A model generated the notes under the pieces. The model did no database searches, was not told where the DNA came from, and was given only the letters and a program-made list of their open reading frames with translations. A program made the position numbers and the translations under genes. A stretch of 33,401 nucleotides of DNA from a virus (Duplodnaviria; Caudoviricetes). Below, piece by piece: positions 1-33,401 of this stretch; the stretch's first letter is position 1; every line of letters begins with the position of its first letter. The DNA is taken from the IMG/VR virus record IMGVR_UViG_3300020413_000035, positions 1 to 33,401 of that record; one strand, 5' to 3'.

Positions 1-98
1 GATGTCTAAGAATACCTATTTGAATTTTTTAAAAAGAGAAAAGAAATACACCTTTTTAAATTACAAAGGAATGACTGAAAATGAAAAAAAGAAATTAA
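1..98. repeat. Terminal direct repeat / circular assembly overlap (left copy)
   Basis: 1-98 aligns to 33304-33401; exact over 23-98 (76 nt), mismatches at 5, 7 and 22. Confidence 0.95.
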
Positions 99-334
99 TA
101 GAAATGCCTAGAGTTTTTGAAAATGAAGAAAGCATTTACCAACAGGTAGATGATTATGTGAATACTTTTTACTGGTTTGATCGTAAGCTATTTGACTTGT
201 ACAGATACGAATTCAAATTACACAAAACTAACATGAGCAAAAAAACTAACATTTCTTATTCAACAATTCATAGAACAGTAAAGCGGTGTAAGGTTAAAAT
301 AAAGGACAAACTAAAGGATCAATACTATGAGTAA
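1..334 (+). CDS. C-terminal part of ECF/sigma70-like sigma factor (begins at 33071, ~188 aa across the junction)
   Basis: In frame with the ORF from 33071 through the overlap; KNTYLNFLKREKK (region 2-like) and C-terminal HTH-like MSKKTNISYSTIHRTVKR (region 4-like). Confidence 0.7.
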   Translation, partial: MSKNTYLNFLKREKKYTFLNYKGMTENEKKKLIEMPRVFENEESIYQQVDDYVNTFYWFDRKLFDLYRYEFKLHKTNMSKKTNISYSTIHRTVKRCKVKIKDKLKDQYYE

Positions 335-4380: not shown

Positions 4381-4420
4381 GACAGAAAAACCGTAGCATA
4401 ATTGCTTATATAATATAACC
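4381..4420 (+). promoter_or_regulatory. Putative late promoter GACAGAA-N12-AATTGCT-N7-TATAACC (copy 1)
   Basis: Same three blocks and spacing at 14762-14801; both intergenic and just upstream of structural gene blocks. Confidence 0.7.
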
Positions 4421-6455: not shown

Positions 6456-8092
6456 GTACAAAAATAAACGCAAGAAGCCCACACTATCTTTCCTACACAG
6501 AACCTGCCCTTCCGACGGTTGCCCTTACTTGTACACTTGTAAACTTGCAAGGCATGGAGGTTAATCAGTTTGGTGCAATTCAGTTACCTACGACAGACTT
6601 CGGAACTCTTAAATCATACACAAGCACAGCATCCGACTTTTCAAATACAAAGTTTGCAACAGTAAGCTCACCAACAAGTAGAACAGTTAATTTTTCCGTT
6701 GCCATACCTTCAAACTACAGTAACTCAGGTGATGAAATACTTACTTGCTCTGCAACAGCAACACAACCTGCTTACACCTGCACAGGAGGAATCACAAATA
6801 ACGGATCAATACCTAACCAATCACTAAACACAGGAGGGGCAACTGCAACAATAACCCTTACAAGTTATTTTACTGGTAGTATTCAGGGATATGTTATAGG
6901 AAACCCATTTACAGATTTTGTCGCTACTTCTATTGATGGGGATATTTTAAGCTTATTCTCTCAAAGTAAAGCAGGAGTAAAAACAATCTCAGTAACAGCA
7001 TTTGATGGCAATGATCTTACTTGCGATGCTACTCAGACTATACAAGTTACTACAACCTCAGTATCAGCTTTTGCTTGTGCCGATGCGTTTTTAACAGGAG
7101 GAGCAATAAGTCAATCGGGAGCAATCACAGACCCTACCCTTGAAGGTGTTATCACAGCTAGGAAAAGTACATCAGCAGGATCAACTATTACATCTTACTC
7201 AGCAAACACAACAGGATCAGCTAGAGATGTTACTCTTTTCTTTGACATAACAGTTCCTACAGGGTTTAGTAATACAGGGGCAACAGTTGAATGCTCAAAG
7301 ACTTTTTCACAGCCATCTACTACCCTACCTCCTTTTGGTTGTACTGATGCAGGGTTAACAGGTCAAGGTATTGCAGTAAATGGAAGTATTAAAAAAGGGA
7401 CAGCAAACAAAGGAACGATCACAGCATTTAGTCCAATATCGTTTTCTAATGTATCTACAAACACAGATAGAGATGTAACCTTTTCTATAACCCCACCATC
7501 TAGTGGATACTCTAATAGCGGAGGAAGTGATATAAGTTGCACAATAACAATGCAACAACCTGCACCAGATATTCCAGCTCAAGGTAATGTGAGATGGTAC
7601 GCTGCTTTACAAAGTTGGCAATTTATGACTAACGAGCAATTTACTGCAGCAGGGTATAATATGAATACAATAAATCAGCGTGATAGATCATCAGGAAGGG
7701 TTTTACAGTATAATCTTGACCTAGAACAAAATAATTTAAGAGTAACAGCCTGTAATTTAGAATTAAGATTGACAAGTTCTGCAATTTTAGATAATATAAA
7801 TACAGCAGTTTATTCTAAACGTAACCTTTATGGCAATAGTAATAATTTTTCATTGCTTAATCAAACACAATTTTATGCTACTGATCCATTAACACCAAAC
7901 CCAACAGGGGGTGTATATATTAGAATTTCAGAAAGCTATGAGAACAAATCATGGGTAAATGCACCTGATTATCAACTTAGCTACTGGGATAGCTTGTCTA
8001 AAAGCTACTGGATAAAACTGGAACTTACTGGTTATATCTCTGAAATATGGAGTGTGAACTCTACAAGTCGAACCTTTTCAAGATTAGTATAA
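6452..8092 (+). CDS. Ser/Thr-rich virion protein with Cys-bracketed beta repeats (possible adhesin/receptor-binding protein)
   Basis: Three internal repeats plus one Ig/cadherin-like segment; tail module location. Confidence 0.6.
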   Translation: MSTKINARSPHYLSYTEPALPTVALTCTLVNLQGMEVNQFGAIQLPTTDFGTLKSYTSTASDFSNTKFATVSSPTSRTVNFSVAIPSNYSNSGDEILTCSATATQPAYTCTGGITNNGSIPNQSLNTGGATATITLTSYFTGSIQGYVIGNPFTDFVATSIDGDILSLFSQSKAGVKTISVTAFDGNDLTCDATQTIQVTTTSVSAFACADAFLTGGAISQSGAITDPTLEGVITARKSTSAGSTITSYSANTTGSARDVTLFFDITVPTGFSNTGATVECSKTFSQPSTTLPPFGCTDAGLTGQGIAVNGSIKKGTANKGTITAFSPISFSNVSTNTDRDVTFSITPPSSGYSNSGGSDISCTITMQQPAPDIPAQGNVRWYAALQSWQFMTNEQFTAAGYNMNTINQRDRSSGRVLQYNLDLEQNNLRVTACNLELRLTSSAILDNINTAVYSKRNLYGNSNNFSLLNQTQFYATDPLTPNPTGGVYIRISESYENKSWVNAPDYQLSYWDSLSKSYWIKLELTGYISEIWSVNSTSRTFSRLV

Positions 8093-14761: not shown

Positions 14762-14801
14762 GACAGAATTTGTCTATGTCAATTGCTATACAAGTATAAC
14801 C
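14762..14801 (+). promoter_or_regulatory. Putative late promoter (copy 2)
   Basis: GACAGAA-N12-AATTGCT-N7-TATAACC, followed by TAAAGATG as in copy 1. Confidence 0.7.
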
Positions 14802-24395: not shown

Positions 24396-25096
24396 GACCA
24401 AGAATTTCAGCAAATTTAATTCCTAGTTACTATAACCTTATAAAAGCTGAAAAAAGAATTTTAGTAATCGGTGATCTTCACGAACCTTTTACACATCCTG
24501 AATATTTAGATTTTTGTAAAACTCAATATGCAAACTATAATTGCAACCAAGTGATTTTTATAGGAGACATAATTGATTCACATGGTTGGAGTTACCACGA
24601 AGCAGACCCTGATGGAATGTCAGCAGGAGATGAATTGAGCGTTGCTATTAAAAAGATTGCTAGATGGTACGAGGCTTTTCCTGTTGCAGATGTATGCATT
24701 GGCAATCATGATAGATTAGCATCTAGAAAATTGTTTACAGCAGGTGTGCCACAAAAATGGATCAGGGGCTATAATGATGTATTAGGAACACAACAATGGA
24801 ACTGGGTAGAGGCAATAGAATATGACAATGTACTCTATGAGCATGGAGAAGGTGGACAGGCACAAGCTAAAGCAAAAAACAACATGATGTCAAGCGTATG
24901 CGGACATACTCATACAGAAGCATATGTAAGGTGGTTTGTAGGTAAAAAATTTAGATGTTTTGCAATGCAAACAGGTTGCGGTATTTCTCCAACGACATAT
25001 GCTGCTGCTTATGCAAAGAATTTTAAAAGACAAGCACTAGGTGTTGGAATTGTTATAGGTGGACATACTGCTTTTAACCGTATGATGGAGTTATAA
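24380..25096 (+). CDS. Calcineurin-like metallophosphoesterase
   Basis: GDLH, GDIID, GNHD, HG and GHTH motifs; likely start MAKQ at 24380. Confidence 0.85.
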   Translation: MAKQIRPRISANLIPSYYNLIKAEKRILVIGDLHEPFTHPEYLDFCKTQYANYNCNQVIFIGDIIDSHGWSYHEADPDGMSAGDELSVAIKKIARWYEAFPVADVCIGNHDRLASRKLFTAGVPQKWIRGYNDVLGTQQWNWVEAIEYDNVLYEHGEGGQAQAKAKNNMMSSVCGHTHTEAYVRWFVGKKFRCFAMQTGCGISPTTYAAAYAKNFKRQALGVGIVIGGHTAFNRMMEL

Positions 25097-25136
25097 AAAA
25101 AAGGCAACCCATCTACGAAAATGAAACTGCCTTTTT
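25095..25136. terminator. Bidirectional intrinsic terminator with large loop
   Basis: AAAAAGGCA...TGCCTTTTT. Confidence 0.6.
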
Positions 25137-25172
25137 AGATTGTAAAATGTTTTTTGTGAACTACTTTTTACA
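25095..25172 (-). ncRNA. Candidate ~75-nt small RNA
   Basis: Minus-strand TATATTTG (25176-25183) upstream, TGTAAAA/TTTTACA hairpin, terminator with U-tract; no ORF. Confidence 0.4.
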
Positions 25173-25208
25173 TTTCAAATATAACGAAAATCTTTTAATT
25201 TTTAGCTA

Positions 25209-25231
25209 AACCGTAAGTAATAACGTAAGTA
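25209..25231 (+). repeat. Integrase arm-type direct repeats (left pair)
   Basis: AACCGTAAGTAATA ACGTAAGTA, 12-nt period. Confidence 0.7.
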
Positions 25232-25264
25232 AAAAAACAAACCCCTAGCATTTACAGGGGTTTT
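25231..25264. terminator. Bidirectional terminator downstream of the tRNA-like att core
   Basis: AAACCCCT-AGCATTTAC-AGGGGTTT flanked by A/T tracts. Confidence 0.75.
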
Positions 25265-25274
25265 CGTGATTTAT

Positions 25275-25290
25275 TGTAGCCCGTAGGGGA
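25275..25290 (-). other. attP: attP core matching the 3' end of a tRNA-Glu
   Basis: Minus strand TCCCCTACGGGCTACA matches the 3' end of Bacteroidota tRNA-Glu as I recall it; between arm repeats, next to the integrase. Confidence 0.75.
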
Positions 25291-25318
25291 CTATAACCTT
25301 TGATTTAAATTTTGAAAT

Positions 25319-25356
25319 ACTCAGTAAAACAGTACATATTTACTGGGGTTTTTTAT
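25319..25356 (+). terminator. Hairpin plus T-tract upstream of integrase
   Basis: CAGTAAA...TTTACTG followed by a T-run. Confidence 0.5.
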
Positions 25357-25391
25357 TTTTTTCTTTTTTTTATCTCTTTTTAATACTTTTG

Positions 25392-25414
25392 AACCGTAAG
25401 TAATACCGTAAGTA
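25392..25414 (+). repeat. Integrase arm-type direct repeats (right pair, abutting the int ATG)
   Basis: AACCGTAAGTAATA CCGTAAGTA. Confidence 0.7.
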
Positions 25415-26604
25415 TGGGTTTCTTTGTCGATTCTAAAACTAAAATTTTATTTTTCCATTTTTATTTATCAGGCGAAAGAAGTGCATACAATACAAAGATA
25501 AAAATAAAAAAAGAAAACTGGGATTTAAAAACACAAAGACCTTATACAAGAAGAGGTGAAGTTGGAAAACAAAACAGAGATATAACAAACACATTAAATG
25601 AATACCAAAGGGCATTTGAATTACTTAAATCTCAATACAAAGAGGCTTTAACTAAAAAAATAGTAAAACAGCAATTTGATAAATACTTTCATAATGTCAA
25701 AGAGCCAGTATTAAAAAAGTATTATTCTGAGTTTTACAAGGAGTTTCTACAAGAGAAAACAGAAATGCAATCTTTAACCAGACATTCTGTATCTAAATAC
25801 GTTGTACTTAATCGTAGGATTGAGGAAATGGAAAAATCAAACAATATCAAATATTCTTTAACTGACTTTAATAATAAATTTTTTGTGAAGTTTATTAGTT
25901 ATTTAAGAACAGACTTAGACATATCAGACAATACACTTTCCAGATACATAACAGCGTTTAAGTCTTTTTTAAATTGGTGTGCTAAAAATGATTACGATGT
26001 AAACAATGACTATAAAGATGTAAAAATTAAAGAAAGAGAAACTTCACAAATTCATTTAACAGATGAAGATTTAGTAGTATTAGAAGAAGTCAAACTTTCA
26101 AAATTTTTAGACTACTATAGAGACCTTTTTTTAATTGGTGTTTACTCAGGACAAAGGTTTAGTGATTATCACAGATTTAATAAGAAGTACAGACAAGGTG
26201 ATTTTCTTATTATAAGAGCAAAAAAAACAAGCGAGTTTAGTTACATTCCACTTACTAATAAACTTTTAAATCTTTTAGACAAATACGATTGGGTTTTTCC
26301 AAAGATAAGTGGTCAAAAATTTAATCCTCATGTTCAAAAAATTTGCAAGATTGCAGGGTTTGATGAAATTATACAAATAGATAAATTTTACGGAAACAAA
26401 AAAGTAAGCAAAGATGTTCCAAAATGGAAACTTATTGCTAGTCATACTGCACGAAGAACGTTTATAACCTTATCAGAGCAAAAGAATGTGCCTATAAGTA
26501 TGATTATGCAAACAACAGGCATAAAGTCTTTGAAAACACTTAGAAACTACATTAAATTTGATAAAGACAAACTGTTTGAAGCTATTTCTGAGGCTTGGGA
26601 TTAG
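25414..26604 (+). CDS. int: Tyrosine integrase
   Basis: GQRFSD (R), KKT (K), HTARRTF (HxxR), RNY (Y); N-terminal arm-binding and SAM-like domains. Confidence 0.92.
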   Translation: MGFFVDSKTKILFFHFYLSGERSAYNTKIKIKKENWDLKTQRPYTRRGEVGKQNRDITNTLNEYQRAFELLKSQYKEALTKKIVKQQFDKYFHNVKEPVLKKYYSEFYKEFLQEKTEMQSLTRHSVSKYVVLNRRIEEMEKSNNIKYSLTDFNNKFFVKFISYLRTDLDISDNTLSRYITAFKSFLNWCAKNDYDVNNDYKDVKIKERETSQIHLTDEDLVVLEEVKLSKFLDYYRDLFLIGVYSGQRFSDYHRFNKKYRQGDFLIIRAKKTSEFSYIPLTNKLLNLLDKYDWVFPKISGQKFNPHVQKICKIAGFDEIIQIDKFYGNKKVSKDVPKWKLIASHTARRTFITLSEQKNVPISMIMQTTGIKSLKTLRNYIKFDKDKLFEAISEAWD

Positions 26605-27238
26605 TATGTTTTTTAAATTCGCCTAGAACTTTGTCTGCTTTTTCATCAGTTCCTTTTTTAATAGAAAGTAAAAAATCAATTGCTTTTTTTGTGTTTTGAT
26701 CAGATTTACTTTCTACTGCTGTTTTCATTTCTTGAAGCTTAGTTTCTAGTTGATGATTAATTGCTTCAACAGCTTTTCCTCTATGCTCATTTAAAAACTC
26801 TATAAAATCATCTTGTTTCTGCTCAAAAGCATCCATTCTATTATTAACCTGCTGAAATGTTTTAACACTAGAAAGTAGTGCCTTTTCAATTTTATTAGCT
26901 AGATAGTTTAATGCATAGTCATGATTCTCAAGATACTCTTGAATATTATCATACGAAGCATCCATAGATTTTTTTAGAGAGTTAGCGTTCGCAGGCTGAT
27001 TTTGCATACCCTTGACAATCATTTCGCCATAACCTAAAAGTACCCAATCGTAATTTAGTTGTGGAAAACGCAATATAATTTTATCTAAAAGCTTTGCGGA
27101 TGGTGTTTTTCCATTCGTAATTACATGATGCAATGAACTACTGCTAGGTAATTTACATTGCTTACTAAATTCTCTTACTGACATCCCTGTTGAATCAATA
27201 AAAACTTTTAATCTTTTGCTTTGCGGTGAGATTTCCAT
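26582..27238 (-). CDS. HTH repressor (CI-like) with coiled-coil C-terminus
   Basis: RL..FI...GMS..EF, I...FP.LN.DW.L.G.GEM; only credible minus-strand gene, divergent from the early operon. Confidence 0.75.
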   Translation of the reverse strand: MEISPQSKRLKVFIDSTGMSVREFSKQCKLPSSSSLHHVITNGKTPSAKLLDKIILRFPQLNYDWVLLGYGEMIVKGMQNQPANANSLKKSMDASYDNIQEYLENHDYALNYLANKIEKALLSSVKTFQQVNNRMDAFEQKQDDFIEFLNEHRGKAVEAINHQLETKLQEMKTAVESKSDQNTKKAIDFLLSIKKGTDEKADKVLGEFKKHTNPKPQK

Positions 27239-27290
27239 GCTTATTTTTTGTTGTTATTTTTTTTAAAATTCGTTGTTTTTTAAAAAAATG

Positions 27291-27321
27291 TTTGTCTTTT
27301 TGTTGTTTTTGTGTATATTTG
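27291..27321 (+). promoter_or_regulatory. Early rightward promoter (Bacteroidota primary sigma type)
   Basis: TTTG-N19-TATATTTG matches the -33/-7 consensus. Confidence 0.75.
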
Positions 27322-27382
27322 TAACAGATTTAAAACATAAAAAATAAAATGTTTTTAAAGTATTCATTAAAAGTAAACAAAT

Positions 27383-27697
27383 ATGCAACAGGAAAAATAC
27401 AATAAACTAAAAATTTCTTTACAAGCTATTAACAAGATCAAAATTCAAAAGAATGATAATCAATCATTTTCTTCTAAGAAAAAAGTCAAGGATCAGACAT
27501 TACATCTTATGATTGATTTAGGGGAATTTACAATAATTGTTGCAGGACAATTGAGAAAGTTCTATAAAGTTCGCAAAAATGACAAAAGCATTTGGTTTGG
27601 CATTACAGTTTTAGATTCAGAACTAGAAGAGCAAACACCAACCAAACCACAGCATACAGAAATTAAAAAAGAAATCAGCAAAAAATTAGTAGCATGA
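27383..27697 (+). CDS. Hypothetical protein (first early gene)
   Basis: ORF after promoter, ATGA overlap downstream. Confidence 0.55.
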   Translation: MQQEKYNKLKISLQAINKIKIQKNDNQSFSSKKKVKDQTLHLMIDLGEFTIIVAGQLRKFYKVRKNDKSIWFGITVLDSELEEQTPTKPQHTEIKKEISKKLVA

Positions 27698-27987
27698 AAA
27701 AATTTGAAGGTAGTCCGATTGATGGTGTGTTAGAAGTTCTAAACTATATGCGAGATAGTATAGACAATAACACTAAATCAATTAATAAGCTAAGACAGAA
27801 AATTACTCACGATGAAGATGGAAAATTAATAGATCGGTTTTATACGATCAAAGAAGTCAGTAGCATAGTTGGTTTATCAGAATACTATGTAAGACAAGAC
27901 ATCAAAGAGGGAATGCTTAAACCTCTTGAAAGAGGTGGCAAGAACGTAATTACAAAAAAACAATTACAAGAATATTTAGACAGATAA
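27694..27987 (+). CDS. Excisionase-like HTH protein
   Basis: FYTIKEVSSIVGLS...V...IKEG.L...GGK..I....L..YL. Confidence 0.75.
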   Translation: MKKFEGSPIDGVLEVLNYMRDSIDNNTKSINKLRQKITHDEDGKLIDRFYTIKEVSSIVGLSEYYVRQDIKEGMLKPLERGGKNVITKKQLQEYLDR

Positions 27988-28005
27988 CACACTAATTAAA
28001 ACACA

Positions 28006-28197
28006 ATGAAAATTTACAAAACGTACGCAGACAAAGAAGATTGGTTTGAGACTACAGTTCAAGAATTTAAAGAAAAGTTTCAGGACTGGGATTTTGGAGA
28101 CTTAACAGCTTTACAGACCCTTAAATCATGTGGCACATTGAGAACACCATTTGCCTTCTACTCACTCAAACCATCATTTAAAAACAAAAGACAATGA
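28006..28197 (+). CDS. Hypothetical protein
   Basis: 63-aa ORF, A-rich start context. Confidence 0.6.
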   Translation: MKIYKTYADKEDWFETTVQEFKEKFQDWDFGDLTALQTLKSCGTLRTPFAFYSLKPSFKNKRQ

Positions 28198-28379
28198 GAA
28201 AATTAGAATCAGTTGGTTGCTATGTTGATGAAACAAAAGGAATCACATACCCAATAAAAAGCGATGATAAACCAGATTTTATGGCAGATGTACTAATCGA
28301 GGATTGTAGCTATGAATGGTTTAAGGCTTTATCAATAAAAGATAAATTAATTGTAAAAAAAATAATTGATCAAATATAG
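28194..28379 (+). CDS. Hypothetical protein
   Basis: 61-aa ORF, ATGA overlap. Confidence 0.6.
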   Translation: MRKLESVGCYVDETKGITYPIKSDDKPDFMADVLIEDCSYEWFKALSIKDKLIVKKIIDQI

Positions 28380-28389
28380 AAATAACACA

Positions 28390-28578
28390 ATGGCACAAAA
28401 ACACACAAAATCAGTATTAAAAAATTCAATAGCAAAAGAGGTTATTGGATATGACTATCATGAATTAGATGAATGTCAACAATCATTTATTGATGATGAA
28501 TACCAATCACTACATGATATAGCAATGAGTATTAAAATTAATTCTAAAATAAAACACAATGGCACAAAGCACAGTTAA
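28390..28578 (+). CDS. Hypothetical protein
   Basis: Likely start MAQKH at 28390 (AACACAATG context). Confidence 0.55.
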   Translation: MAQKHTKSVLKNSIAKEVIGYDYHELDECQQSFIDDEYQSLHDIAMSIKINSKIKHNGTKHS

Positions 28579-28915
28579 AAAAGTACAAGGAAACGGAGAT
28601 TTCCTGTATCAAAACAGACAATTTTATTCTTTTGAATATGAATTAGAGGATGGAGTTGTAGGAATGGCTAATCACACTACATCAACACCCAAATACAATC
28701 AAGGAGATTCTGTCAATTATGAATTAGCAGGAAAAGATATGCAAGGAAACAACAAGATAAAATTTGTTCAAGCACAGCAATTCTCAAACTCTAAAGAAAA
28801 AAGCTCAAACAAATCATTCGCTTTATCATATGCAAAAGATTTAGTAATAGCTGATAAAATAGGAATTGAAAAAATATTAGAAACAGCAGATAAGTTTAAC
28901 AATTGGATGAATTAA
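28559..28915 (+). CDS. Putative OB-fold/ssDNA-binding-like protein
   Basis: Beta-rich N-terminus, SFALSYAKD C-terminal motif. Confidence 0.45.
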   Translation: MAQSTVKKVQGNGDFLYQNRQFYSFEYELEDGVVGMANHTTSTPKYNQGDSVNYELAGKDMQGNNKIKFVQAQQFSNSKEKSSNKSFALSYAKDLVIADKIGIEKILETADKFNNWMN

Positions 28916-28917
28916 TT

Positions 28918-29424
28918 ATGAAAGTAATCAGATTAAAATCAGATAAAGAAACTCAAAAACCAGTTTCTCAGGAAATGCAGATTATTAGCAAAAAACATCT
29001 TGGGGAGAGTTATTTAGATAACATACTCAAAGAAGTACAAGAAGGAAATGTGCCTGCAACATTTGTCACATTTCAGATAAAAAAGTTTGAAAAACAAATA
29101 CAAATACTAAAACAAAAGATTGAAGATCAATCTATGACAGAACTTGTTGGAAACGGAGATTATCAAATAGGCGAAGAAAAATTGATTGTTAGACAAGGCA
29201 GTAGAACTTTTGACTATTCAAAATGTGAAGGAGTACAAAAAGCACAAGAATTATTAAAACAGGAAAAAGACAAATACAAATCCGCATATGAAGGTATTGA
29301 AAAGGGTAATACAGTTTTAACTGAAGACAATATGTTTGTCGATCAAGATGGTGTTACACAAAATTTTCCAACACCTAAGTACAGCAAGGATAGTATTGTT
29401 TTAACAAAAGTAGGCAGAGGCTAA
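28918..29424 (+). CDS. Hypothetical protein
   Basis: Coiled coil plus FDYS.C motif; start 28903 or 28918. Confidence 0.6.
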   Translation: MKVIRLKSDKETQKPVSQEMQIISKKHLGESYLDNILKEVQEGNVPATFVTFQIKKFEKQIQILKQKIEDQSMTELVGNGDYQIGEEKLIVRQGSRTFDYSKCEGVQKAQELLKQEKDKYKSAYEGIEKGNTVLTEDNMFVDQDGVTQNFPTPKYSKDSIVLTKVGRG

Positions 29425-29450
29425 TCCGACAATTAATCTGCCTACTTTTT
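29406..29450 (+). terminator. Intrinsic terminator with 18-nt loop
   Basis: Perfect 13-bp stem AAAAGTAGGCAGA/TCTGCCTACTTTT including the T-tract. Confidence 0.75.
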
Positions 29451-29462
29451 AACATTTAAATT

Positions 29463-29906
29463 ATGAAAGCAAATTTTAAAATTAGTCCTGACATATGTTT
29501 ATCAGAATACAAAAATACTATTCTTGAAGACTATGCAGTTGATATAACAAGTAAAAAACAAACTCAAAAAGACATAAAACTACTTTTAGTTTTTGTTAAA
29601 TATGTTAAGGTTAAATATTCAGGACTTAGAGATTTAACAATAGCTGAGTTTTTAAATAGAGAAAGCAAAGAAATTTTAAGATATTTAGTTGATCACGACA
29701 AACTTTATACTCAGTCGCAGAACTTCAAACATTTTTCCGATTACCTAAGAACTAAATTACGAGGTATAGATTCAGAAAGCTTACCAACACATTGGAAAGA
29801 ATTGTGTAATGAATTAATAGAAATATCTCCTGAAAATGTAAGGGAACAGATTTATTATTCTATCAAACAATTACACGAACAAATTAAAAATAAAGTTACA
29901 AAATGA
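29463..29906 (+). CDS. Hypothetical protein (possibly DnaA C-terminal-like HTH)
   Basis: DITSK...IAEFLNRE pattern, weak resemblance. Confidence 0.45.
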   Translation: MKANFKISPDICLSEYKNTILEDYAVDITSKKQTQKDIKLLLVFVKYVKVKYSGLRDLTIAEFLNRESKEILRYLVDHDKLYTQSQNFKHFSDYLRTKLRGIDSESLPTHWKELCNELIEISPENVREQIYYSIKQLHEQIKNKVTK

Positions 29907-30562
29907 GTAAAGACCCTGCATTTCTCTTTTACTCTTCAGACTGGATATCAGGAACAATGTTCTTAGATCATGAACAAAAAGGAAAGTTTATTGATCTTTT
30001 ATGTGCACAGCATCAAAGAGGAAGATTACGTAAAAAAGATATGTTAATCATATGTAAAACATATGATGAAGATGTGTTCAGTATGTTCAAAAGAGACAGA
30101 GAAGGGTTGTATTATAACGAAAAGCTTGAGTTTGAGCAGAATCGTAGAAGGGCTTATAGTGAGTCTAGGAGGGATAATAGAAAGAAAAAAACAAACTCTT
30201 TAGATAAGATATCTAAATCATATGTTAATCATATGGAAACTGAAACTGAAACTAAAACTATAAATGATACTAAAACTGAAATTTATCCAACCTTTCAAGA
30301 TTTTTGGAATTTATACGATTACAAACAAAATAAACCTAAATCCAATAAAGCTTGGGATAGATTAAAGCAAAAGGAAAAAGAGCAGATTATAGATTATCTA
30401 CCCTTTTACATTGAATCAACACCTGACAAATCATTTAGAAAACATCCAACAACCTTCTTAAACAACAGAGGTTGGGAAGATGAAATTATAAATAAAAAGA
30501 AAACTAATGACACAAACGCAAATCTCAGAGCAAAAATTACAAGAGAGTTACAGTCTAACTAA
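29903..30562 (+). CDS. Replication initiator (YdaU/DUF1376-like N-terminus)
   Basis: KDPAFLFY..DW; C-terminal F..FW..Y and KHP.TFLN...WEDE; internal iteron-like repeats. Confidence 0.75.
   Translation: MSKDPAFLFYSSDWISGTMFLDHEQKGKFIDLLCAQHQRGRLRKKDMLIICKTYDEDVFSMFKRDREGLYYNEKLEFEQNRRRAYSESRRDNRKKKTNSLDKISKSYVNHMETETETKTINDTKTEIYPTFQDFWNLYDYKQNKPKSNKAWDRLKQKEKEQIIDYLPFYIESTPDKSFRKHPTTFLNNRGWEDEIINKKKTNDTNANLRAKITRELQSN
30038..30283. repeat. Iteron-like origin repeats within the initiator gene
   Basis: CATATG-like hexamers at 11-bp period in two clusters; ATATGTTAATCATATG twice; 6-bp GAAACT-type repeats. Confidence 0.65.
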
Positions 30563-30986
30563 TTTTATTAATAACGATAAAATTGAAACCGTAGAACAGG
30601 CTCTACAAGATCGCACTACTCCTACTTTAGCGACTCTTAAAAAAACAAACAAGGAAAAAACATTGGCATTGTTAGAAGCTTTTATCCTAAGCATAAAAGA
30701 CCTAAAGGGATCAAGACAAGAAATATTAGATGTTCAGATTACAAACATGGCAAGAATAATATTAAAAGAATATTATTATCTCAAAACTTCAGAAATTAAA
30801 ATTATTCACGACAAGATTATACTTGAATCAGAACAGACCTATAGTCAAAACTTGTTGGAGAAGATAATGAACAACTTTAGAATCTATGCAAACAACAGGA
30901 TGCAAGTAGCAAAACAAACACACAGACCAGTTCAGGTACACAAAGACATAGAACAAAAGATTATTAATATATCAAAAACACAATAA
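30507..30986 (+). CDS. Hypothetical protein (helicase-loader position)
   Basis: Helical protein following the initiator. Confidence 0.5.
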   Translation: MTQTQISEQKLQESYSLTNFINNDKIETVEQALQDRTTPTLATLKKTNKEKTLALLEAFILSIKDLKGSRQEILDVQITNMARIILKEYYYLKTSEIKIIHDKIILESEQTYSQNLLEKIMNNFRIYANNRMQVAKQTHRPVQVHKDIEQKIINISKTQ

Positions 30987-30987
30987 A

Positions 30988-31344
30988 ATGATTATAGAAA
31001 CAAATGGTATAATTAAAAAAATATTCAATAAGCAATACAGAGGTGCTAACAAGTTTGAGATTGCACCTATCCTGTTGACCAGAGAAAACAAAGACTACTA
31101 CTTAGAGGCTATTGGTATGTATGCAGGAATACCAAATCAATTTCAAGAAGGAAACCCTGTAAGGTGTAAGCTTGAGGTAAGATCACAACAAAGCAAAAGT
31201 GATGAAGAGAAGTACTGGACTAATGTAAACCTAGTAGATTGTGAATTAGACATAGATCAACCAGATCAAGCACCGCCTAACCCATTTGAAATGATGCAAG
31301 AATCAAAGAAAGAACAAGAGGAAGAAAATGACTTACCATTCTAA
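30988..31344 (+). CDS. SSB-like OB-fold protein (DUF3127-like)
   Basis: OB-fold pattern and acidic tail ending DLPF. Confidence 0.7.
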   Translation: MIIETNGIIKKIFNKQYRGANKFEIAPILLTRENKDYYLEAIGMYAGIPNQFQEGNPVRCKLEVRSQQSKSDEEKYWTNVNLVDCELDIDQPDQAPPNPFEMMQESKKEQEEENDLPF

Positions 31345-31345
31345 T

Positions 31346-31891
31346 ATGAAATTTAAAAATTTAGCATTTGGAAAACACCCATCAGTTGAGGCTATAATGG
31401 CAAAAGTATTTACCGATGAAGGTAAATGCATTTCAATAGTATGCGGAGAAAATATGTACAGTTCATCTAAAGCAGGAAAAGGCAAAGCCTGTTCTAGTAT
31501 AAAAGATGCCATAAGTTTTGAAGTTATGGTTGGAGATGATGAACCATTAGGATGGCAGACAAAATTAGATATAGATGACATCTTAGCAGAGAATTTTAAA
31601 ATTAAAAAAGTAAATGAGTGGCTGTTAAACAAAGGAGAAAAAACAATTTTCGCAACAGTAAATAAAATACATACTTACTCACCACCACAAGATAAAACGC
31701 AAGACAATAACGAACTATTTATTGGGATGGAGTGCTTTGTAGAAGATACAGAAAACATAAAAGGTTTATCAATGCTTAATAGTTTTGATCTTACTCTTAA
31801 CATTAGTCCATACGAGTTTTTAAACACATTCGATCAAAAGACAATTAATCAAATTAAAAAAGTTTTAATCCAAAAAATCAAATCAAAATGA
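31346..31891 (+). CDS. Hypothetical protein
   Basis: Likely start MKFKN at 31346. Confidence 0.6.
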   Translation: MKFKNLAFGKHPSVEAIMAKVFTDEGKCISIVCGENMYSSSKAGKGKACSSIKDAISFEVMVGDDEPLGWQTKLDIDDILAENFKIKKVNEWLLNKGEKTIFATVNKIHTYSPPQDKTQDNNELFIGMECFVEDTENIKGLSMLNSFDLTLNISPYEFLNTFDQKTINQIKKVLIQKIKSK

Positions 31892-32211
31892 TACAATTAG
31901 AAATTAAAGAAAACGACATTTTTTACTCTTCATGGGGATATGAGCAAACCAATATTGACTTTTATAAAGTAAAGAAAGTAACTAAAGAAATGGTTTCTCT
32001 AGTTGCAATAGAAAGCAGAATAGTAGAAGAAGAATCAAATTATCATACAGATGCAGTTGTTCCTTATCCTGCAAATGAGGGAAAAAATGTATTTAGAAGA
32101 AAAGTAAAACACGCTTGTGATAGACCTTATGTAAGCATAAATAGTTTTGCTTGTGCTTTTCCATACAAGGGCAAACCTCTTGGTCAAACAAACCCAATGT
32201 ATGGACATTAA
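31888..32211 (+). CDS. Conserved hypothetical protein (SWGYEQTN.DFY motif)
   Basis: Motif recognisable from mobile elements; ATGA overlap. Confidence 0.65.
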   Translation: MIQLEIKENDIFYSSWGYEQTNIDFYKVKKVTKEMVSLVAIESRIVEEESNYHTDAVVPYPANEGKNVFRRKVKHACDRPYVSINSFACAFPYKGKPLGQTNPMYGH

Positions 32212-32350
32212 AGAAAATCTACAAGAAGAGAATACTGAACTTCATTCACAAGTAGAATGGCATAATTACTTCATTGATTATGTGTATAAAGTAAACAGAA
32301 ACTTATACAATGATGCTTGCCAGTATGCAGATAAAAAACAAAAAACATAG
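32201..32350 (+). CDS. Small hypothetical protein
   Basis: Likely start MDIKE at 32201. Confidence 0.5.
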   Translation: MDIKENLQEENTELHSQVEWHNYFIDYVYKVNRNLYNDACQYADKKQKT

Positions 32351-32396
32351 TCTGATCCACTTACGGATTGTTTCATTATTTTAATTAGTTTGGATT

Positions 32397-32421
32397 GCCC
32401 CCCTAGTCAGGGGGGTTTTTT
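32397..32421 (+). terminator. Intrinsic terminator of the early/replication operon
   Basis: GCCCCCCT-AGTC-AGGGGGGT followed by T-tract. Confidence 0.85.
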
Positions 32422-32444
32422 GTATATTTATATAAATTTATATT

Positions 32445-32603
32445 ATGGATAAAGAGATAGAGAACATTGCTACAATGTGCCTAAATTTACCTGAATATCA
32501 AAGGAAACAAATTATATCAATTTTAATAGCTTCAATGCTTACAGAAAAAAGCGATAAAGATGCTAGAAAAGCATATAATAAAATTATATCTACACTTTCA
32601 TAA
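32445..32603 (+). CDS. Small hypothetical protein (52 aa; not in ORF track)
   Basis: MDKEIENIATMC...STLS, open from ATG to TAA. Confidence 0.55.
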   Translation: MDKEIENIATMCLNLPEYQRKQIISILIASMLTEKSDKDARKAYNKIISTLS

Positions 32604-32614
32604 AAGAATAAATC

Positions 32615-32645
32615 TTGGTTTTTAAATAAAATTTACTGACATTTG
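32615..32645 (+). promoter_or_regulatory. Possible promoter for ninG-sigma
   Basis: TTG-N20-GACATTTG, one mismatch to TAnnTTTG. Confidence 0.4.
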
Positions 32646-32653
32646 AATGTCGG

Positions 32654-32679
32654 ATTAGCCTTACAGATGTATGGCTAAT
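32654..32679 (+). promoter_or_regulatory. Hairpin sequestering the ninG start codon
   Basis: ATTAGCC-T-TAC-AGAT-GTA-T-GGCTAAT; ATG 32671-32673 lies in the 3' arm. Confidence 0.6.
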
Positions 32680-33078
32680 AAAAAAACATATCTTAACAAG
32701 ACAATTCCGCAGTTAAAAAGAATTGCGGTAACTCACTTTCACAAATATATAAGAGAAAGAGATCAAGGCAAAGCTTGTATCTCATGCGGTAAATACACTA
32801 CTCTACAAGCAGGACATTTCTACTCAGCAGGACAAAACCCTTCAGTAAGATTTAACGAGGACAATGTGCATGGTCAATGTCTGCAATGCAACTACTTTAA
32901 ACATGGTGCATTAATGAACTACACTTATAACATTGTTGATCGAATCGGCAAAGAAAGATTTGACAAACTAAAATTTCACGTTGATGTTTCAAAGAGATTA
33001 CGATTCAAATGGGACAAATTTAATCTGATAGAAATAATTGAAAAGTACAAAGCCCTTAATAAAAAACCACATGGATAA
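32671..33078 (+). CDS. ninG: NinG/Rap-like endonuclease
   Basis: F..YIR.RD...CISCG, AGHF, RF.EDN.HGQC..CN. Confidence 0.88.
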   Translation: MANKKTYLNKTIPQLKRIAVTHFHKYIRERDQGKACISCGKYTTLQAGHFYSAGQNPSVRFNEDNVHGQCLQCNYFKHGALMNYTYNIVDRIGKERFDKLKFHVDVSKRLRFKWDKFNLIEIIEKYKALNKKPHG

Positions 33079-33401
33079 AAAACAAGCAATGGATATAATC
33101 TACAAGCAATATTTAAATATTAAGCAAATAGTTTATTTAATCGAACAGAAATACTTTAATCGCAAATACCAAATTTACGAAGACATTACTCATGATGTAT
33201 TTATAAAAATTGATACTGAATTTGATAAAATCAAAAATGACTCTCCTGAAACTTTAAAACTTCTTGACAGAATTTCAAACGGTCATTTGTCATATATATA
33301 TACGATGGCAAAGAATACCTATTTAAATTTTTTAAAAAGAGAAAAGAAATACACCTTTTTAAATTACAAAGGAATGACTGAAAATGAAAAAAAGAAATTA
33401 A
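33071..33401 (+). CDS. N-terminal part of ECF/sigma70-like sigma factor (continues at 1-334)
   Basis: My translation: MDKKQAMDIIY...YEDITHDVFIKI...SYIYTMAKNTYLNFLKREKK, matching ECF region 2 (EDxxxDVFIK; YxxxxAKN). Confidence 0.7.
   Translation, partial: MDKKQAMDIIYKQYLNIKQIVYLIEQKYFNRKYQIYEDITHDVFIKIDTEFDKIKNDSPETLKLLDRISNGHLSYIYTMAKNTYLNFLKREKKYTFLNYKGMTENEKKKL
33304..33401. repeat. Terminal direct repeat / circular overlap (right copy)
   Basis: Matches 1-98. Confidence 0.95.

Follow-up and report, generated by a model that had tools for sequence, protein, structure and literature searches.

A question is raised by a 14-base inverted match in the phage genome of IMG/VR record IMGVR_UViG_3300020413_000035 (Duplodnaviria; Caudoviricetes), whose whole stretch of 33,401 nucleotides (nt) is called the window here: do the bases at 29418..29431, almost entirely in a hairpin loop between the early genes F7 and F6, and the leader of the ninG gene 3.2 kb downstream pair as RNAs, and what would such pairing do? 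Based on the comparison of relatives, RNA-RNA pairing between the loop (the key) and the leader (the lock) is taken as established, with hardly any doubt left. The loop of the early operon probably acts in trans as an RNA key, opening the hairpin that contains the ninG start codon and thereby gating a late sigma factor encoded behind ninG. An earlier note, made from the letters of the window, had proposed this reading and had placed the key in a terminator loop. The core of that proposal is strongly supported because of the covariation of both sites, the strand polarity of the pairing, the promoter box at the toehold, the joint loss of key and lock, and the identity of the sigma factor; its terminator part was not supported.

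Covariation of key and lock

The key (29418..29431, plus strand, as are all features below unless stated otherwise) was confirmed as the exact reverse complement of 32648-32661, and these two sites are the sole exact copies in the window. The supposition that shuffled genomes would seldom equal this match failed, as inverted matches of fourteen bases arise 8.35 times per genome after dinucleotide shuffling, and one with at least 7 G+C appeared in 12% of the 200 shuffles. Taken from one genome alone, the match is weak evidence, and the support comes from relatives. Searches with NinG returned 137 loci at 54% identity or more, many of them redundant between collections; 63 of these hold both regions and give 43 distinct pairs, the others being too short or having no recognisable junction. 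The alignment of relatives that the earlier note had suggested revealed compensatory changes between the key and lock sites. The nearest relative (L001) carries a swapped pair in the middle of the duplex, from G-C in the window to C-G, and a compensatory swap also separates L120 from L127.

In an unbiased scan of upstream DNA, the best partner of the leader was the F7|F6 junction, ahead of the replication initiator, in most loci that were long enough. Another site was chosen in L109, L121, L127, and L233, all of which carry a junction key, and because the scan had misplaced the best site in these few loci, the junction was redefined by gene order and the test was repeated. The hairpin loop pairs with the ninG leader in 33 of 35 junction loci of the first set. 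The energy is -24.3 kcal/mol for cognate pairs, whereas the 1056 non-cognate pairs reach -14.0 kcal/mol (0 of 20,000 permutations). For 31 of 33 loci, no more than 3 of 200 leader shuffles equalled the cognate energy; the numbers were 7 for L202 and 18 for L226. Pairing was found in 37 of 43 distinct loci of the wider set, in which key and lock lie 2.1-4.4 kb apart. To reduce the influence of kinship, leaders were grouped via shared 9-mers into 15 groups with one representative each, and the cognate junction was the best partner for 14 of the 15 representatives (0 of 100,000 permutations). Two loci with NinG identical over the aligned part (L094 and L095) have different key-lock types, which nevertheless match within each locus, and a search with the sigma factor contributed further types (L260, L261, and L287). 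The sequence of key and lock is not itself conserved across the 15 groups; the complementarity is.

A chance match, or an inverted repeat acting at the DNA level in recombination or as a protein-binding site, might be suspected from the window, since matches this long are common in single genomes. However, complementarity is kept across the 15 groups while the sequence changes, and in the core from +1 to +11 the plus strands show 21 G-U against 3 A-C oppositions. The duplex accommodates G-U but not A-C, and does so on the plus strand only; therefore the pairing is one between plus-strand RNAs and not a DNA repeat, and chance or a DNA-level repeat can practically be dismissed. DNA inversion was also rejected, as the segment is inverted in no relative.

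Searches with the exact 14-mer and a hairpin 15-mer matched 77 and 9 viral stretches, respectively, of which only L086, the same contig as L001, was recognisably related, the others being unanalysed. Rfam covariance models gave two matches, both at chance level, in window positions 25000-33401 and zero in five relatives. Neither the phage records searched with the sigma factor nor the genomes searched with the sigma alignment contained a match, and a genome scan with NinG found a single contig, in a metagenome-assembled genome (MAG) bin. The Riemerella phage RAP44 has a different layout, in which lock and key were not flagged.

The lock in the ninG leader

A predicted housekeeping promoter of the Bacteroidota type lies ahead of ninG (32615..32645), with TTG at 32615-32617, a -7 box with one mismatch at 32638-32645, and a predicted +1 at 32649-32650. 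The first bases of the predicted transcript would form the toehold (32649..32653), followed by the lock hairpin (32654..32679), in which folding confirmed the ninG AUG that the earlier note had placed there and whose lower stem the key would invade. Of 82 distinct leaders, 38 carry a perfect TAnnTTTR box, of which the R was picked after data inspection, and 80 carry one with at most one mismatch; the corresponding shares at other genes are 0-4% and 21-52%. The position of this box is -12 to -5 (PMC9723704). Opening the start region of ninG costs 9.0 kcal/mol in 35 distinct switch loci at 37 °C, compared with 1.4-3.5 kcal/mol in ten other gene families and 4.3 kcal/mol in five loci that have no key. 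The AUG is paired in 33 of 37 loci and lies at the foot of the stem in the other 4, and the lock loops are short and A/U-rich and contain no Shine-Dalgarno sequence. Bacteroidota do without this sequence, and initiation in Flavobacterium is tuned by structure at the start codon, not by Shine-Dalgarno pairing (PMC6847099).

The pairing with the key has a sharp edge at the predicted +1: paired loci number 12-14 of 37 at -2 to -4, which is the background, 24 of 37 at -1, and 33-37 of 37 at +1 to +11. Upstream of +1, cognate keys extended the pairing no better than foreign keys (9892 of 20,000), and a pairing that continues into the promoter DNA sequence was ruled out by this lack of cognate extension. 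Upstream of the ninG promoter, a terminator-like hairpin was present in 36 of 43 loci and not found in 7; in the window, a terminator scan predicts an intrinsic terminator at the end of the early operon (32397..32424), which would separate the key and lock transcripts. With pairing that starts at the predicted +1, and a terminator-like hairpin ahead of it in most loci, lock and key most likely reside on separate transcripts.

The unpaired toehold of the earlier note stood only for a transcript that starts there. In the fold model of the window, transcripts that start upstream of 32636 would form hairpin A (32636..32653, 7 bp), which covers the toehold and leaves it with a probability of 0.00-0.02 of being unpaired. 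This bears on activation in cis, in which an antiterminated early transcript would read through so that key and lock pair in one molecule across a loop of 2-4 kb. Both sites lie on the same strand and in the same order, pairing runs upstream of the predicted +1 in eight loci, and no terminator was found in 7 of 43. In 18 of 43 loci, a small conserved hairpin or palindrome (32354-32369 in the window) also follows immediately on the stop codon of the last early gene, 45-100 nt ahead of the early terminator; it could be an antitermination signal or a protein-binding site. Nevertheless, the sharp onset of pairing at +1 with no cognate extension overall, the terminator in 36 of 43 loci, and the toehold hidden by hairpin A in read-through RNA make the cis arrangement unlikely. 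Furthermore, the genes between key and lock are translated and of variable length, and winding 11-15 bp into a closed loop should be easier with a free 5' end, as separate transcripts would offer.

Between its terminator and its ninG promoter, the window has an inserted open reading frame of 52 amino acids (aa) that carries a promoter-like box (32423-32603); in RNA made from there, hairpin A would form and cover the toehold. The insert of L001 at this place is a different one, on the opposite strand.

The key hairpin at the F7|F6 junction

In all relatives that have it, the key is located at the F7|F6 gene junction. Folding of the window confirmed the presenting hairpin (29406..29449), with a 13-bp stem (29406-29418/29437-29449), an 18-nt loop, and an optional inner 4-bp helix (z -4.5). 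Loops are mostly 16-29 nt long across relatives; by a crude parse, at least 5 U follow the stem in 11 of 32 hairpins and at most 3 U in 13 of 32, and L097 has a stem of A and U only. The hairpin of the window, which the earlier note had called a terminator, was not flagged by the terminator scan. A conserved terminator was rejected on account of the long loops, the variable U tract, and the AU-only stem of L097; the copy in the window may still partly terminate. The hairpin is best read as a scaffold that holds the key single-stranded. A role for the F7 stop codon, which lies within the key in the window, was also rejected, as in most relatives this codon precedes the hairpin.

The idea that the key has its own promoter was rejected as well, with a box upstream in 2 of 33 loci against a background of 12%; therefore the key would be part of the early mRNA or a piece processed from it. 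The early lytic promoter of this RNA is predicted at a perfect TAnnTTTG box at 27314..27321.

The reverse direction of control was also weighed, in which the leader RNA targets the early hairpin, alters its termination or cleavage, and shuts off the replication genes behind it. The hairpin does directly precede the F6 and replication-initiator genes, and about a third of the parsed hairpins have the longer U tract. Many have no such tract, the stem of L097 is AU-only, and the F6 start region is unstructured (2.6 kcal/mol). This direction would also leave unexplained why a hairpin locks the AUG, why it overlaps the paired segment, and why pairing has a boundary at -10, and it is considered very improbable, although it may occur as a by-product of the main mechanism.

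Predicted invasion of the lock

The predicted invasion has a uniform geometry. A median of 7 free bases and 5 lock pairs is engaged by the key, which displaces no fewer than 3 pairs of the lock in any of the 37 loci; the toehold, whose length depends on the predicted start site, offers at least 4 free nt in 32 of 37. The last Watson-Crick pair of the key falls at -10 or -11 in 22 of 37 loci and never closer to the AUG than -10. With the target strand held by the key, in an additive model at 15 °C, the mean cost of opening positions -10 to +12 falls from 12.9 to 5.7 kcal/mol, by more than 2 kcal/mol in 31 of 33 loci, and net binding is below -5 kcal/mol in 29 of 33.

Antisense RNAs that pair within about 20 nt of an AUG usually repress, and the key-lock duplex lies in this region. 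Early RNA on the leader might thus block the ribosome platform or recruit an RNase until the early RNA declines. In contrast to what repression would demand, the AUG is locked already without the key, which would make a repressor redundant. The key removes the 5' arm of the lock in 37 of 37 loci and never reaches past -10, and the lineages that have no key have also lost the lock, four of the six now starting ninG with UUG. Repression is therefore quite improbable. Activation should be the better fit for a duplex by which the anti-start arm is removed but the start region is not reached.

The sigma factor and predicted late promoters

In the window, the gene downstream of ninG (32671..33078; NinG/Rap endonuclease, Pfam PF05766; first gene of the operon that would be gated) runs across the terminal repeat, its 5' part at 33071..33401 being joined to a 3' part at 1..334. 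The overlap with ninG seen in the earlier note was confirmed, at 8 nt. The full-length protein in L171, whose NinG is 100% identical, scored 50.9 bits against TIGR02937 (cut-off 42.9), and the top fold matches of the sigma model were weak matches to extracytoplasmic function (ECF) sigma factors (best E 0.0014). On sequence grounds, the gene is an ECF sigma factor. Of 34 junctions at which it directly follows ninG, 29 show an overlap of 4 or 8 nt, and A at -3 is found at 29% of sigma starts, compared with 50-97% in nine other families. In L115, L121, L194, L196, and L287, genes of 308-394 aa are inserted between the first gene and sigma with 4-nt overlaps kept; the inserted gene of L287 encodes a C5 methylase. 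The switch could take effect downstream by coupling, by polarity, or by gating the packaging genes directly.

A late role of the sigma factor is supported by conserved predicted late promoters. The motif consists of a TAGACCGA-like box, a spacing of 12-16 nt, and an ECF-like CGT/TGT box before the gene after the terminase. It was found in 40 of 42 relatives with at least 47% identity, in 41 of 72 overall, and in 1.5% of shuffles. In the window, one copy lies after the terminase large subunit (4381..4406) and a second, with the same motif, ahead of the head-gene block (14762..14787); both are predicted to be read by the phage sigma. L139 and L140, in which sigma is displaced, have a different motif at this place.

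Joint loss and replacement

Six loci without the key (L002, L003, L197, L199, L196, and L139) are also without the lock. In L002, L003, L197, and L199, ninG starts with UUG and has no lock, and the junction hairpin has been absorbed into the F6 frame; the UUG start could, as a side reading, be a different way of keeping sigma low. The former key hairpin can still be located in the start of the F6 frame, at about 5500-5560 in L002/L003 and also in L197, L199, and L259. The leader of L196 is unstructured and the locus has no junction. In L139, also without a junction, only 6 nt separate the end of the promoter box from the ninG AUG (6940-6990), so that a near-leaderless ninG mRNA is predicted in this lineage. 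Because the NinG tree, the base of which is unresolved, places L196 and L139 within groups of loci that have the switch, at least three losses are indicated. In L287, which has no ninG, the box, lock, and key stand on a DUF1064 gene followed by the methylase and sigma with two 4-nt overlaps; therefore the device would gate the operon and not NinG as such. In distant relatives of the sigma factor (~35% identity), no lock was seen at any nearby gene of the nine loci inspected.

Proposed mechanism

A possible mechanism can be assembled from these results. The host housekeeping promoter would start a short leader exactly at the toehold, probably in the lysogen too, and this leader would fold over the ninG AUG and remain silent. 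Once repression ends, the key would be presented in a loop of the early mRNA or of a stable fragment derived from that mRNA. The key would seed on the free 5' end of the leader and displace the lower stem of the lock, and with the duplex ending at -10 or further upstream, the initiation region would stay open. Translation of the first gene could then pass to sigma via the overlapping stop and start codons, or could prevent polarity, and sigma would activate the late promoters.

Several observations weigh against this activation in trans. A single RNA data set from the same sample gave no reads on the stretch, which speaks neither for nor against the model. From its predicted +1, the window offers a toehold of 4-5 nt that is only partly free in the fold model (0.15-0.95), and fewer than 4 free bases are available in 5 of 37 loci. 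Eight loci of one type (L112-L114, L133, L135, L137, L138, and L140) can pair 4-6 nt upstream of the +1 given by their better box, the analysis having been anchored on an earlier, poorer one. Net binding is weaker than -5 kcal/mol in 4 of 33 loci, including L202 and L131, for which only a short core was modelled, and the key of L202 is weak (-14.4 kcal/mol). The duplex covers about -22 to -10, which lies within the low-structure zone usual in Flavobacterium (-20 to +20; PMC6847099), and could itself hinder the 30S subunit. On the output side, L140 retains the switch, but its sigma gene lies 3.1 kb further on and the chain of frames is interrupted by 71 nt. The region around the sigma start has no structure to be opened (2.2 kcal/mol), and loci without the switch still have the ninG-sigma overlap; because of these two findings, coupling is not proven. 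Finally, the loci are related, so the counts given here are of non-independent events.

Genome context

The window is a complete phage genome of 33.3 kb with a 98-nt terminal repeat, and includes genes for an integrase, a divergent repressor-like protein, an excisionase-like protein, a replication initiator, a single-stranded DNA-binding protein (SSB), NinG, and the terminase. The two copies of the repeat (1-98 and 33304-33401) differ at three positions within the sigma gene, which suggests that two strain variants were assembled together. The phage appears to be temperate, as a tyrosine integrase is present (25414..26604; PHROG 1, Pfam Phage_int_SAM_5). The non-coding stretch 5' of it (25097-25413), with repeated CCGTAAGTAA words and a minus-strand terminator, is likely attP with the integrase arm sites. 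A CI-like repressor is encoded on the minus strand (26582..27238; PHROG 8, transcriptional regulator), divergent from the early operon, its repressor role being suggested by this position. The early genes F7 (28918..29424) and F6 (29463-29906) flank the key and are conserved clade-wide; neither has a Pfam, PHROG, or NCBIfam family match, and F7 as a search query recovered no loci. F6 is followed, within 29463..31344 between key and lock, by the replication initiator, a gene called loader-like as a guess from its position, and SSB. The host is inferred to be a member of the Flavobacteriaceae because a 57% identical integrase homolog is named from a Flavobacteriaceae MAG, TAnnTTTG boxes are present, and the sigma factor matches a Bacteroidota subfamily.

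Comparison with known systems

A search of the literature that covered subscription papers only in part found no description of this key-lock element. The closest known system is IsrK of the Gifsy-1 prophage, in which IsrK RNA leads via orf45 and anrP to AntQ, so that the Q-like antiterminator is induced (PMC4825925). In both cases, by prediction here, a phage RNA opens a translationally inactive phage leader in trans, and the end product is a regulator of lytic transcription; the first frame of the IsrK target is translationally coupled to the next, as ninG may be to sigma (PMC4825925). IsrK is a separate small RNA that shares its promoter with its target (PMC4825925). The key, in contrast, lies in a loop between two cistrons of the early replication operon, 2-5 kb from the lock, and no conserved promoter precedes it. 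A predicted promoter serves the target separately, the predicted output is an ECF sigma factor, and key and lock have diverged into many types of specificity.

Synthetic toehold switches share a 5' single-stranded toehold, a start codon in the 3' arm of a hairpin, and a trigger of free sequence that first binds the toehold and from there opens the lower stem (PMC10132225). Their toehold is 12 nt long (PMC10132225), whereas the natural pairs described here have a median of 7 free nt and 5 invaded pairs. They also differ in that the lock loop has no Shine-Dalgarno sequence, the trigger sits in a closed loop, and activation is a prediction made from sequence.

Activation of rpoS by DsrA, RprA, and ArcZ follows an anti-antisense mechanism. 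Phage StxS activates rpoS in the same manner (PMC12197685, PMC7547250), and the lambda PreS small RNA (sRNA) activates dnaN (bioRxiv 2024.10.31.621285). Common to these systems and the present one is an RNA that pairs with a leader and frees a start region, and the product of rpoS is also a sigma factor. DsrA, RprA, ArcZ, StxS, and PreS are free, Hfq-dependent sRNAs that target host mRNAs with long leaders, whereas both partners here are phage RNAs, the leader is about 20-35 nt long, and the partners coevolve one to one.

The N/Q cascade of lambda works by protein antitermination. The lambda aQ RNA is a repressing antisense RNA (PMC12197685). The genome position (nin region, late activator, and packaging genes) is shared with lambda, as is a late activator that is off until the early phase has run; in the present clade, the predicted gate is an activating RNA-RNA pairing at the level of translation. 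Phage-specific immunity types are conferred by the c4 antisense RNA of P1 and P7. CI of P4 is likewise an antisense RNA (PMC4825925). These two share short, phage-internal RNA pairing with the key and lock, but repress or terminate to keep lysogeny, unlike the activation predicted here, and no Rfam match was obtained for the present pair.

Significance

The textbook early-to-late switches of phages are protein devices, either antiterminators or sigma cascades. For this widespread clade of uncultured temperate phages of marine Flavobacteriia, the balance tips slightly towards a broader picture in which the early replication mRNA triggers the locked late-sigma mRNA at the passage from early to late. 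Key and lock would have drifted into many largely orthogonal toehold-switch types, each phage being able to open its own late programme but not the one carried by a related prophage. If this is true, a conserved step of activation from mRNA to mRNA replaces a protein device, in a layout close to a design supposed to be synthetic. More than a dozen natural, partly orthogonal key-lock pairs that act independently of Shine-Dalgarno sequences would then be useful for engineering in Bacteroidota, and long-range covariation between phage transcripts would represent a class of regulation that escapes local searches of the Rfam type.

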